A stretch of DNA of 64,000 bases from Escherichia coli. GTDB taxonomy: Bacteria; Pseudomonadota; Gammaproteobacteria; Enterobacterales; Enterobacteriaceae. A model generated the notes under the pieces. That model saw nothing but the letters and a program-made list of their open reading frames with translations, made no database searches and had not been told where the DNA came from. This document shows positions 10,321 through 13,976 of this stretch, one piece after another. Every line of letters begins with the position of its first letter. Positions within the stretch are counted from its first letter, which is position 1. Position numbers and translations under genes: made by a program. The DNA is taken from NCBI RefSeq assembly GCF_003334815.1, contig NZ_QOWO01000002.1, one strand, 5' to 3'.

Positions 10321-11604
10321 ATGGAATCCCTGACGTTACAACCCATCGCTCGTGTCGATGGCACTATTAATCTGCCCGGTTCCAAGAGCGTTTCTAACCG
10401 CGCTTTATTGCTGGCGGCATTAGCACACGGCAAAACAGTATTAACCAATCTGCTGGATAGCGATGACGTGCGCCATATGCTGAATGCATTAACAGCGTTA
10501 GGGGTAAGCTATACGCTTTCAGCCGATCGTACGCGTTGCGAAATTATCGGTAACGGCGGTCCATTACACGCAGAAGGTGCCCTGGAGTTGTTCCTCGGTA
10601 ACGCCGGAACGGCAATGCGTCCGCTGGCGGCAGCTCTTTGTCTGGGTAGCAATGATATTGTGCTGACCGGTGAGCCGCGTATGAAAGAACGCCCGATTGG
10701 TCATCTGGTGGATGCGCTGCGCCTGGGCGGGGCGAAGATCACTTACCTGGAACAAGAAAATTATCCGCCGTTGCGTTTACAGGGCGGCTTTACTGGCGGC
10801 AACGTTGACGTTGATGGCTCCGTTTCCAGCCAATTCCTCACCGCACTGTTAATGACTGCGCCTCTTGCGCCGGAAGATACGGTGATTCGTATTAAAGGCG
10901 ATCTGGTTTCTAAACCTTATATCGACATCACACTCAATCTGATGAAGACGTTTGGTGTTGAAATTGAAAATCAGCACTATCAACAATTTGTCGTAAAAGG
11001 CGGGCAGTCTTATCAGTCTCCGGGTACTTATTTGGTCGAAGGCGATGCATCTTCGGCTTCTTACTTTCTGGCAGCAGCAGCAATCAAAGGCGGCACTGTA
11101 AAAGTGACCGGTATTGGACGTAACAGTATGCAGGGTGATATTCGCTTTGCTGATGTGCTGGAAAAAATGGGCGCGACCATTTGCTGGGGCGATGATTATA
11201 TTTCCTGCACGCGTGGTGAACTGAACGCTATTGATATGGATATGAACCATATTCCTGATGCGGCGATGACCATTGCCACGGCGGCGTTATTTGCAAAAGG
11301 CACCACCACGCTGCGCAATATCTATAACTGGCGTGTTAAAGAGACCGATCGCCTGTTTGCGATGGCAACAGAACTGCGTAAAGTCGGCGCGGAAGTGGAA
11401 GAGGGGCACGATTACATTCGTATCACTCCTCCGGAAAAACTGAACTTTGCCGAGATCGCGACATACAATGATCACCGGATGGCGATGTGTTTCTCGCTGG
11501 TGGCGTTGTCAGATACACCAGTGACGATTCTTGATCCCAAATGCACGGCCAAAACATTTCCGGATTATTTCGAGCAGCTGGCGCGGATTAGCCAGGCAGC
11601 CTGA
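10321..11604 (+). CDS. aroA: 3-phosphoshikimate 1-carboxyvinyltransferase (EPSP synthase)
   Basis: 427-aa ORF ([35 protein letters not shown]…), serC-aroA operon arrangement. Confidence 0.97.
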
Positions 11605-11650: not shown

Positions 11651-11663
11651 CGGCACATTGTCG
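11651..11663. repeat. IS4 target-site duplication, left copy (CGGCACATTGTCG)
   Basis: 13-bp sequence immediately outside the IS4 left end, identical to 13090-13102. Confidence 0.88.
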
Positions 11664-13089
11664 TAATGCCAGTCAGTTAAGCAACTGACTGGCTCTTTTT
11701 CGGGGCTGTGGGGTATTTCCAGGGCCTCTCCTTTACCACTCTCGGGAAGGCCCTTTCCCTTCTTGTCGGTAATTTCACAAGTTGTCCCATACTTGCAAGA
11801 TCGCGCATCAGCTCCGGTATACGTCCCGGTGAAGCGCCCTGCAATGTCATCAGCATTCTCATCACCATTCCGCATGATTCTGAGAAACTCAGTTGATTCG
11901 GCCAGTAACCTTTCAGATGTTCCGCCATTTTAATTATCTGATATCTCACCAGATTATAAGCCAGTAAGACACCCCACAGCTCTTGCTCCACAAGCTCCGG
12001 TTTTTTACTTCTCAGCGTCAGCCTGCTCAGTTGCATCGTCTGTTTTATCTCCCTGTATCCCAGTTCGATTTCCCAGCGATGACTGTACAGATCCGCCATT
12101 TCTCCTCCGGGGAAGCGCATGGCGTCCGTCATCGACGTCAGCAGATGGCAGACTTTTCCTTTGCGCGTCACGGTCAGCAGGCGGGCAGTCACTTCATTTC
12201 CCAGTCCCGGCCACTTTTTTCGTGCCTGCGGGCTGGTTTTCAGCTTCACCAGATGATCGCCTTTACCCAGTTTTCTGATCTCTTCATATTGCGCTCCCTT
12301 TCTGAGAGGTATCATCCAGTGGCGGTGTTCTCCCGCCAGGCTCCAGGCATTTAACAGTCCCAGTGAGTAATAACCTTTATCCATTAACGTCAGAGTGTTA
12401 TCGCCGGTTTGTTCTATAAGTTGCTCAGCAAGCTCATTTTCGCTGTTCTTCATCGTGCCGAAGGCTGCAGCCGTCAGCAGATGGCTGGTCAGTTCCATCT
12501 GGCAGACCATTTTGACCTGCGGGTAGAGCGCCGGGTTCCCGGCATGTGTCTGGCGGGGGAAGGCTGCATCGTTCTCTGGTGTATCCGGTGTGCGCCAGAA
12601 CACACCATCGATGGCCAGCAGGGTCAGGCCGCACCAGTGCGGATGCGGCGTGGCGTTATGCCAGAGCTGCGCTGTTTTCGTGAACACGCGGCGGACAGCC
12701 TCACTTCCCAGGCGCTGGCGGGCCTGAATAACGGCACTGGGGGCAACGAAGGGGCGATTGCCCGGCAGCATGATGTCCAGGCGATTCACAATCTGGTGAA
12801 GAGGTTCTTTACGCTCAAGCGCCATGCCAACAATACACCAGACCATCATTTCGAGGGGAAGACGGCGCTTGCGTAGCGTTACAGTACCTGATTCGGCAAG
12901 GCAACGAGAGATGAGTTCGGGGTCGAGGTAATCCCCCAGAGAAGTCAGTGGGTTACGCAGAGAATCGTAACGGGATACCAGATCAAGAGCCTGTCCAATG
13001 TGCATAAAAAAATCCGGAAACAAGTGAGCGTTTCCGGATTCTTACACAGCCACTGGATCGGTCAACTGATCCTTAACTGATCGGCATTA
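11664..13089 (-). mobile_element. IS4 insertion sequence, complete 1426-bp copy
   Basis: Imperfect terminal inverted repeats (TAATGCCAGTCAGTTAAG at 11664; revcomp of right end TAATGCCGATCAGTTAAG ending 13089); single transposase ORF; flanked by identical 13-bp direct repeats. Confidence 0.92.
11677..13005 (-). CDS. insG: IS4 transposase (DDE family)
   Basis: ORF-track 448 aa trimmed to ATG at 13005 giving 442 aa ([40 protein letters not shown]…); stop 14 bp inside the IS end; uninterrupted reading frame. Confidence 0.93.
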
Positions 13090-13102
13090 CGGCACATTGT
13101 CG
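13090..13102. repeat. IS4 target-site duplication, right copy (CGGCACATTGTCG)
   Basis: 13-bp sequence immediately outside the IS4 right end, identical to 11651-11663. Confidence 0.88.
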
Positions 13103-13211
13103 GCGTTTTTTTTCGGACCTTGTGAGTCATTTTGATTAATGGTAGCGTCGCTTGTCAATGTAAGTTGTTGATACATAATATTTATATATGATTAATCAAC
13201 GGATGATTCAC

Positions 13212-13976
13212 ATGAAGAATACTAAATTACTGCTGGCGATTGCGACCTCTGCAGCATTACTGACAGGGTGTCAAAATACCCACGGTATTGATACCAATAT
13301 GGCTATCAGCTCCGGTTTAAATGCCTATAAAGCAGCAACATTAAGCGATGCCGATGCAAAAGCGATTGCCAATCAGGGCTGTGCCGAAATGGACAGCGGC
13401 AATCAAGTCGCAAGTAAATCCAGCAAGTACGGTAAACGTCTGGCAAAAATCGCCAAAGCATTGGGTAACAATATTAATGGCACGCCGGTCAACTATAAGG
13501 TTTATATGACCAGCGACGTCAACGCATGGGCGATGGCGAACGGCTGTGTTCGTGTCTACAGTGGCCTGATGGACATGATGAATGACAACGAAATTGAAGG
13601 CGTTCTGGGCCATGAACTGGGCCACGTCGCGTTGGGTCACTCGCTGGCTGAAATGAAAGCTTCTTATGCGATCGTTGCCGCACGCGATGCCATTTCAGCT
13701 ACCAGCGGTGTGGCTTCCCAGCTTTCCCGCTCACAATTAGGTGATATCGCAGAAGGCGCTATCAATGCTAAATACTCCCGTGATAAAGAGTCCGAAGCAG
13801 ATGATTTCTCCTTTGATCTGTTGAAGAAACGTGGCATCAGCACCCAGGGGCTGGTTGGCAGCTTTGAAAAACTGGCTAGCCTGGATGGCGGTCGCACCCA
13901 GTCCATGTTTGACTCTCACCCACCATCAACAGAGCGTGCGCAACACATCCGTGATCGTATCGCCTCTGGTAAGTAA
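13212..13976 (+). CDS. ycaL: M48-family zinc metalloprotease lipoprotein
   Basis: ORF trimmed to ATG giving 254 aa (MKNTKLLLAIATSAALLTGC…), lipobox LTGC, HExxH motif HELGH. Confidence 0.88.
   Translation: MKNTKLLLAIATSAALLTGCQNTHGIDTNMAISSGLNAYKAATLSDADAKAIANQGCAEMDSGNQVASKSSKYGKRLAKIAKALGNNINGTPVNYKVYMTSDVNAWAMANGCVRVYSGLMDMMNDNEIEGVLGHELGHVALGHSLAEMKASYAIVAARDAISATSGVASQLSRSQLGDIAEGAINAKYSRDKESEADDFSFDLLKKRGISTQGLVGSFEKLASLDGGRTQSMFDSHPPSTERAQHIRDRIASGK

Follow-up and report, generated by a model that had tools for sequence, protein, structure and literature searches.

An IS4 element lies between aroA and ycaL in the 64-kb stretch of Escherichia coli DNA analysed here (64,000 nucleotides, hereafter the window), bordered on both sides by the same 13-bp sequence. 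Why is it there? Either the insertion is an accident of one strain, inherited by its descendants, or this spot attracts IS4, and in both cases one may ask what the element does to the genes beside it. As a finding, the insertion is routine: IS4 is a known insertion sequence, and dozens of RefSeq genomes already have it annotated between aroA and ycaL. The reading that we favour, and consider very probable, is that a near-consensus IS4 transposed into the predicted terminator of the serC-aroA operon, giving a recurrent and near-neutral polymorphism.

Structure and identity of the element

The coordinates of the element, its neighbours and the predicted signals are collected in Table 1. A sequence-only reading of the locus had described an intact IS4 of 1426 bp, with imperfect inverted repeats at its ends, an uninterrupted 442-aa open reading frame on the minus strand, perfect 13-bp repeats, and spacings of 46 bp after aroA and 109 bp before ycaL, and all of this was recovered. 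The ends (TAATGCCAGTCAGTTAAG and TAATGCCGATCAGTTAAG, the latter being the reverse complement of the right end) are inverted repeats that agree at 16 of 18 positions. They have the length of the 18-bp terminal inverted repeats and carry the end signature -AATR... that Table 1 of PMC2266710 gives for the IS4 subgroup. The same source puts target-site duplications at 10–13 bp; those of other IS4 copies are 11–13 bp long, and the one in the window, at 13 bp, is perfect. A perfect 13-bp repeat abutting both ends of a known transposon rules out chance. The transposase gene reads towards aroA and away from ycaL, and an alternative TTG start at 13023, found both in the mechanical list of open reading frames and by PGAP, would lengthen the protein to 448 aa.

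Table 1. Features of the aroA-ycaL insertion, in window coordinates
Feature	Position	Strand	Basis or remark
Complete IS4, 1426 bp	11664-13089	-	1422/1426 versus K-12 IS4; IS4-like annotation in RefSeq carriers
Target-site duplication, left copy, CGGCACATTGTCG	11651-11663		Direct reading and repeat finder (family D11), 100%
Target-site duplication, right copy, CGGCACATTGTCG	13090-13102		Direct reading and repeat finder (family D11), 100%
IRR, TAATGCCAGTCAGTTAAG, end downstream of the transposase gene	11664-11681		16/18 match with the other end
IRL, CTTAACTGATCGGCATTA, transposase-proximal end	13072-13089		
IS4 transposase gene (InsG-type), 442 aa	11677-13005	-	Uninterrupted ORF, ATG 13005 to stop 11677-11679
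aroA coding sequence	10321-11604	+	Stop 46 bp before left repeat; 100% identical to K-12
ycaL coding sequence	13212-13976	+	ATG 13212, 109 bp after right repeat copy
Left half of split predicted aroA terminator: A-tract, 5' stem, loop	11644-11663	+	Ends with left duplication copy
Right half of split predicted aroA terminator: loop, 3' stem, T8; 5-bp stem left	13090-13113	+	Fold -6.7 kcal/mol, z 0.55; weak terminator-scan match
Inward terminator-like hairpin in IRR-side end: GCCAGTCAGTT-AAGC-AACTGACTGGC, then TCTTTTT	11668-11700 (hairpin 11668-11693)	+	Terminator scan, 11 pairs
Inward hairpin AAGAAUCCGGAAACG...UGUUUCCGGAUUUUU, then remaining U's and transposase AUG	13003-13043	-	Repeat pair I8; fold
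Transposase promoter-like site TTGACC, 16-nt spacer, (TG)AAGAAT	13038-13065	-	Consensus scan, predicted
ycaL promoter-like site TTGTCA, 16-nt spacer, CATAAT	13152-13181	+	Consensus scan, predicted; downstream of insertion, untouched

The identification as IS4 also held when the ends and the transposase were aligned. Compared with the copy of K-12 MG1655, the element has 4 mismatches in 1426 positions, without gaps, and the transposase has 3 amino acid substitutions relative to InsG. The protein matches the Pfam domains Nterm_IS4 (residues 18–109, E 7.6e-33) and DDE_Tnp_1 (residues 126–352, E 1.1e-31), and it scores 303 bits on the NCBIfam model NF033592, where the cut-off is 115. The Y(2)R(3)E(6)K motif is found at residues 307–321 as Y307-R310-E314-K321 (YREK), and the D(60–110)D(100–150)E spacing is found in D133/D209/E314, with 75 and 104 residues between them, the aspartates having been assigned from their local motif context. 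D133 and D209 are thus putative catalytic aspartates, and the catalytic E314 belongs to the YREK motif. On these sequence grounds the element is IS4 (IS4 family, IS4 subgroup) and structurally intact.

Can this copy still move? Relative to the consensus of 29 full-length copies it has 3 base differences and one amino acid difference, M357I, and at two positions it follows the population consensus more closely than the K-12 copy does, with one private SNP. The private base, 11935, is the one that produces M357I; it occurs in 0 of the 29 other full-length copies, none of which encodes a protein identical to the window transposase. An IS copy with 100% identity is likewise absent from the 5426 complete E. 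coli genomes, the best being 99.9%. Such a private change could be the mark of an intact but immobile relic, disabled by M357I or by host silencing. However, the substitution is conservative and falls 43 residues past E314, and no damage is seen in the ends, the reading frame, the promoter-like site or either Pfam domain. A relic is unlikely, and the copy is plausibly transposition-competent.

The insertion in its genomic context

When the element is deleted together with one copy of the repeat, the aroA-ycaL spacer of K-12 MG1655 is restored at 562 of 562 bases. The rest of the window aligns gaplessly to K-12 positions 948492–1011052. The two sequences are identical over the 11,663 bp before the IS, and the 50,911 bp after it contain 15 mismatches. 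IS4 is the sole structural difference from K-12 within the 64-kb window, in agreement with its earlier description as the only accessory element in a K-12-collinear segment. An Rfam search returned a single match, a chance microRNA with an E value of 0.8.

K-12 has its own IS4 (insG, b4278) at NC_000913.3 4502090–4503515, upstream of nanX, and its aroA-ycaL site is empty; the statement in the sequence-only reading that the K-12 copy lies elsewhere was correct. The two copies are alike in length (1426 bp), in their 18-bp ends, in their 442-aa transposase and in having an AAA-N20-TTT target. They differ in their sites, one upstream of nanX and the other in the predicted aroA terminator, and in their duplications, of 12 bp in K-12 and 13 bp in the window.

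LT601384, strain 3090 and the NCTC86 assemblies are the nearest carriers of the aroA-ycaL insertion, the first of them with about 2 mismatches over a 2151-bp stretch that includes the whole element, so the window comes from an NCTC86-like lineage. Is the insertion also recent, as had been suggested? The perfect duplication and the near-consensus copy are in keeping with recency. The flanks, on the other hand, are identical to those of NCTC86, which is also a carrier, and we hold the suggestion only weakly.

The target is a predicted terminator

What did IS4 insert into? The empty site folds into a 12-bp stem (AAAACGUCGGCA/UGUCGGCGUUUU) closed by a 3-nt loop, CAU, and followed by U8 (-15 kcal/mol, z -4.7). 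The hairpin begins 40 nt past the end of aroA, and the reverse strand folds poorly. This is a predicted intrinsic (rho-independent) terminator, of canonical form, for the serC-aroA operon, and a terminator after aroA was reportedly described in the 1980s. The 13 bp that are duplicated correspond to the loop and upper stem of this hairpin, and by folding, the native hairpin is lost on the aroA side once the element is in place.

The consensus target of IS4, dating from work of the 1980s, is AAA-N20-TTT. The aroA site fits it (AAA+ACGTCGGCACATTGTCGGCG+TTT), and so does the K-12 site (AAA+TAGGCATCTTGGTTCTGGTG+TTT). Further IS4 copies are found at the convergent terminator of tatE/lipA (AAAAAACCCG[CTTCAAAAAGC]GGGTTTTTT) and in a terminator of the ter island (CCC[CGGCAATGCCG]GGGTTTTTTTT), and the K-12 copy lies in the yjgZ-nanX interval at AAATAGGC[ATCTTGGTTCTG]GTGTTTG. 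Each of the 11 empty sites that were reconstructed forms a hairpin with the duplication in its middle, the fold energies ranging from -8 to -19 kcal/mol. Some targets, such as L052, have the palindrome without the T-run.

A target pattern shared by IS4 insertions

Two surveys of flanking DNA show how general this architecture is. The first was an exact-match scan of metagenome contigs for IRL, in which 83 loci reduced to 43 distinct flanks; the second took IRR and species-representative genomes, where 67 loci from about 20 genera of Enterobacterales reduced to 59 distinct flanks. Beyond IRL, position +1 is C in 32 of the 43 flanks, +4 is C in 32 and +18 is T in 39, and positions +9 to +14 are G-rich. 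Beyond IRR the pattern is its mirror image, with C at +1 in 47 of 59 and T at +18 in 51. A T-run (at least 5 in 6) is present in 63% of the IRL flanks versus 4.8% at random control positions (p about 3e-25), and in 69% of the IRR flanks (p about 2e-40, with the control rate taken from the IRL survey). In the population profiles, the T-run occupies +16 to +21 or +23 from either end of the IS. Judging by these flanks, the target of IS4 is a dyad, composed of an A-tract, a GC-rich palindrome and a T-tract, that the aroA site has in common with about 100 other targets.

Are the surveyed targets intergenic? The stop-free run at the IS boundary, which is shorter than 60 codons in 34% versus 21%, is uninformative on this point. 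The sites that are seen are those of survivors, and selection against harmful insertions could add to an intergenic, terminator-like pattern.

If the pattern describes how IS4 chooses its sites, it should find them. A position weight matrix was trained on 102 flanks from loci other than aroA, and both arms were scored across the window from which the IS had been removed. Among distinct sites the aroA site came 4th; among all 187,491 candidates of position and length it came 10th, about 4.7 SD above the mean, and the best register at this locus had both the correct position and the 13-bp length. The other top sites, in K-12 coordinates, lie just downstream of mukB, pflB, ihfB and ompF. The highest prediction of all, at 33801 downstream of mukB, is also a site in use: 20 genomes carry IS4 at the junction that the matrix predicts, all with the element the same way round. 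With the element reversed, 80% coverage is reached by 2 genomes, of which one matches at 100% identity and the other (VL40), joined from two pieces, is less certain. Downstream of pflB and of ihfB, a test of one orientation found no IS4. Since these two sites score highly and were empty in that test, the matrix does not fully explain the use of sites; it is good but incomplete, or else some insertions are removed by selection.

Recurrent insertion at the aroA-ycaL site

Of the 5426 complete E. coli genomes, 2687 have IS4; the median copy number is one, and the places that IS4 occupies total roughly 5500. Both junctions of the window insertion are present, identical and with the duplication in the same place, in 40 of the 5426, including NCTC86, LT601384, strain 3090, IAI39 and CE10. 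The opposite orientation was counted by means of a synthetic junction in which IS4 was reversed, and 68 further genomes, PF9285 and UMNF18 among them, have the reversed element at the same base; the three of these that were retrieved carry the same 13-bp duplication at the same position. The insertion is thus not the strain-specific polymorphism that it had been taken for. With 108 of 5426 occupied, the site accounts for about 2% of genomes and also for about 2% of all IS4 copies.

The uninterrupted aroA-ycaL site is found at 80% coverage in 4902 genomes. About 416 are neither clearly empty nor occupied by IS4, and in these the alignments are probably split by a divergent spacer haplotype.

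An orientation bias was also considered, the transposase being antisense to the upstream gene at aroA, at tatE/lipA, in the ter island and in K-12. At the aroA site it was refuted by the counts, the reversed element being more frequent than the orientation of the window (68 versus 40).

Do the carriers descend from a single insertion? One ancestral event in the aroA-ycaL spacer could have been passed on by vertical descent, or carried to other strains along with its flanks by homologous recombination, and the NCTC86-like group, whose flanks are identical and whose IS copies are just 2–5 bases apart, looks as such a history predicts. These carriers probably do share a single event. Beyond this group the picture is different. 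The element sits at the same base in both orientations, and the duplication follows the local sequence: both copies read CGGCACATTGTCG (...TTGTCG) in the window, NCTC86, STEC17-190 and SCU-172, and both read CGGCACATTGCCG (...TTGCCG) in IAI39, N3, PE164, MS20645 and OZ038879, in each case matching the lineage's own terminator allele. Up to 60 differences in 1500 bp (about 4%) separate the adjacent flanks of carriers, MS20645 and OZ038879 have an indel in the left spacer, and OZ038879 and SCU-172 have identical IS copies in different flanks. Because of the two orientations at one base, the T or C that both duplication copies share with their surroundings, and the divergent flanks with their indel, the insertions at the aroA site are best read as independent hits, at least three events being required. 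A single origin is largely refuted for the carriers as a whole, and we give it hardly any weight.

As the same base has been hit independently, a shared IS4 position is no proof of shared ancestry, and this is a warning for strain comparison. The main use of the aroA-ycaL IS4 is in marking strains of NCTC86-like lineages.

How might one base be hit again and again? In the favoured account of transposition into the terminator, two staggered cuts 13 bp apart would be made symmetrically about the dyad of the hairpin, and the loop and upper stem would be duplicated as a consequence. The transposase would recognise the dyad by its sequence, its shape or both, which would turn terminator-like sites into base-precise hotspots. 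If IS10 and IS50 are a guide, the insertion itself would be of the cut-and-paste type, the 3'-OH ends attacking the target about one helical turn apart.

Predicted hairpins in the IS4 ends and expected effects on the neighbouring genes

An element that breaks a terminator might be expected to disturb the genes around it, and altered 3'-end formation of aroA and altered expression of ycaL had indeed been proposed. The first half of this proposal has a basis, in that the predicted aroA terminator is split. IS4, however, carries hairpins of its own. In the favoured account, transcripts leaving aroA would meet an 11-bp hairpin with a U-run 5–37 nt inside IS4, which would replace the lost terminator. 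The fold of the aroA-IS4 junction (-24.8 kcal/mol, z -4.1) is stronger than that of the native hairpin and comes with a T-run. On these folds, aroA transcripts should end about 90–95 nt after the stop, whereas the native terminator would release them at about 70 nt.

Transcripts arriving from the ycaL side, in turn, would meet a 15-bp hairpin with a U-run before the transposase AUG, and transcription from outside would be kept off the transposase. In read-in RNA, this IRL-side hairpin folds at -38.3 kcal/mol (z -5.0). RNA starting at about 13031, the predicted start of the element's own transcript downstream of the transposase promoter-like site, is without the 5' arm and stays unfolded (-2.7, z 0.86). 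The IRL-side hairpin is missing from the output of the terminator scan, probably since the maximal stem consumes part of the T-run. IS4 is accordingly predicted to offer a terminator-like hairpin to incoming transcription in either orientation, and the hairpins of its ends probably replace the broken aroA terminator.

Since the IS4 end supplies a hairpin with a T-run, and since the ycaL promoter-like site lies downstream of the insertion and is untouched, like the ycaL coding sequence, the effect on aroA and ycaL is expected to be small. The impact proposed earlier was probably overstated, and the insertion is most likely near-neutral. That little effect is expected is consistent with the persistence of both orientations in many lineages.

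Could the recurrence instead reflect an advantage? Insertions may accumulate at one place through positive selection for a regulatory effect (on the 3' end or stability of the aroA mRNA, or on the expression of ycaL or cmk-rpsA) rather than through target preference. Such an effect is conceivable, given that the native terminator hairpin is destroyed and that the site is occupied in 2% of genomes. However, a matrix derived from unrelated loci and genera predicts the exact base and the duplication length, and the mukB hotspot as well; both orientations persist, even though different ends of the IS then face aroA; the IS end offers a substitute hairpin; and the ycaL promoter-like site is intact. 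Since the target model is predictive, positive selection is unnecessary, and we regard it as improbable.

Does IS4 target terminators?

The same observations could be taken further. IS4 might be a dedicated terminator-targeting transposon, one that recognises the A-tract, GC-hairpin and T-tract of intrinsic terminators (especially those that look bidirectional) and cuts symmetrically about the dyad, and whose end hairpins both restore host termination in either orientation and shield the transposase from read-through. This extension is tentative, and we think it somewhat more apt to fail than to hold. If it were true, IS4 hotspots would be predictable to the base across Enterobacterales. An element that selects terminator hairpins and supplies replacements would persist at low copy number with little damage, which would explain what is seen of IS4. 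With hotspots that can be predicted from sequence, it would also offer a simple DDE-transposase system for the recognition of structured or bent target DNA. The combination of terminator-like dyad targeting and replacement hairpins is a modestly interesting lead.

No paper connecting IS4 with terminators was found in the searchable literature, and the consensus may already stand in older work. On IS4 target specificity, terminators and the serC-aroA terminator, nothing specific was found beyond PMC2266710 and PMC1525189. The former source confirms target specificity for IS231 and calls the specificity in the target arms of certain IS4-subgroup elements "spectacular", a remark that the dyad target of IS4 fits. 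The word "terminator" is absent from PMC2266710, and no link between IS231 and terminators is stated there.

Relation to other elements

The logic of the IS4 target resembles that of IS231A, an element that belongs to another subgroup of the IS4 family, has ends of the form CAT... and lives in Gram-positive hosts. IS231A is said, from work by Hallet and colleagues in the 1990s, to prefer a GGG(N)5CCC palindrome flanked by AT-rich, bendable DNA and to make duplications of 10–12 bp.

Other insertion sequences also use extragenic, hairpin-forming palindromes as targets, a "safe haven" strategy: IS1397 and ISKpn1 at REP/BIME, and ISRm22 (IS4 family) and elements of the IS110 family at REP sequences. 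Tobes and Pareja (2006) found ISRm22 in REPs and, in Shigella flexneri 2457T, 3 of 11 IS4 copies adjoining REPs. REP-targeting elements recognise repeated families by sequence, whereas the targets of IS4 are unrelated, single-copy, terminator-like dyads that resemble each other only in architecture.

Terminators are also used as neutral landing sites by quite different elements. The class C (IIC) group II introns of bacteria home just downstream of the stem-loops of intrinsic terminators. These introns move by RNA-based retrohoming and insert after the hairpin, whereas IS4 is a DDE transposon and inserts inside it.

Finally, the proposed protection of the transposase gene against outside transcription has a known counterpart. 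In IS10 and IS50, read-in transcripts fold so that translation of the transposase is blocked, and the element's own transcript is without the 5' arm. By its predicted folds, the IRL-side hairpin of IS4 has the same layout. Unlike the arrangement described for IS10 and IS50, it is also followed by a U-run, which gives it a terminator-like character.

Candidate target sites for IS4

When the IS4 target matrix (built from 102 IS4 flanks, none of them from aroA) was applied to the IS-free window, it flagged further terminator-like dyads, which sit immediately 3' of mukB, pflB, ihfB and ompF and are listed in the table together with features near the IRL end. At the mukB site, 20 genomes carried IS4 in one orientation and at most two carried it in the opposite orientation; at the pflB and ihfB sites, examined in one orientation, no IS4 was found.

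Features of the window near the IRL end and at matrix-flagged dyads
Feature	Position	Strand	Description
Promoter-like site	13129-13158	minus	TTGACA, 18-nt spacer, CAAAAT; ycaL upstream region
Hairpin and U-run	13003-13043		ahead of the transposase AUG
Terminator-like dyad	33801-33812		mukB site
Terminator-like dyad	33743
Terminator-like dyad	2723
Terminator-like dyad	17092
Terminator-like dyad	38797

More IS4 copies adjoin fiu, rraA, yddM, idi and ygeA (hits H168 and H188-H203). The IS4 flanks at fiu, rraA and yddM align over some 25-30 nt with unrelated terminators of the window, and this likeness of sequence suggests additional terminator-type hotspots.

Variation at the aroA site

How uniform are the copies at the aroA site? 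In strain MS20645 the element (locus L006, 977-2400) measures 1424 bp and carries a frameshift annotation; this decayed copy occupies the same aroA hotspot as in the window, on a divergent flank haplotype. The assemblies of NCTC86 disagree with one another inside the element, CP019778 having five mismatches to the window copy and LT601384 and LR217818 about two to three each, while the flanks are identical in all. Errors of assembly or polishing within the repeat could account for this disagreement, as could gene conversion from one IS4 copy to another.

About 416 of the 5426 complete E. coli genomes yielded neither an IS4 junction nor, at 80% coverage, an uninterrupted K-12-like aroA-ycaL spacer. 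A divergent spacer haplotype of the kind seen in MS20645 and OZ038879, another carrier, is the likely cause; some of these genomes may instead have other insertions at this site.

Surroundings of the insertion

All 15 single-base differences between the window and K-12 MG1655 lie downstream of IS4, within 13870-59445, and the 11,663 bp upstream of it are 100% identical to MG1655. Given an even spread, the probability that none of the 15 would fall upstream is about 0.045, and the SNP-free side may be due to chance or may mark a recombination boundary near the insertion.

The promoter-like site upstream of ycaL points towards aroA; with the element in place, it faces into the IRL end. A transcript from this predicted site would reach the hairpin and U-run before the transposase AUG.

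Taxonomic spread

In the scan of genome contigs (loci L101-L167), about 20 genera of Enterobacterales had the 30-nt IS4 end as an exact match. It has expanded to multiple copies in Kosakonia oryziphila (16 loci), Budvicia diplopodorum (8), Silvania hatchlandensis (6) and Buttiauxella sp. A111 (6). Short contigs bearing the labels of an Oscillospiraceae MAG and of Chryseobacterium have the same end too, which may represent contamination or mis-binning.
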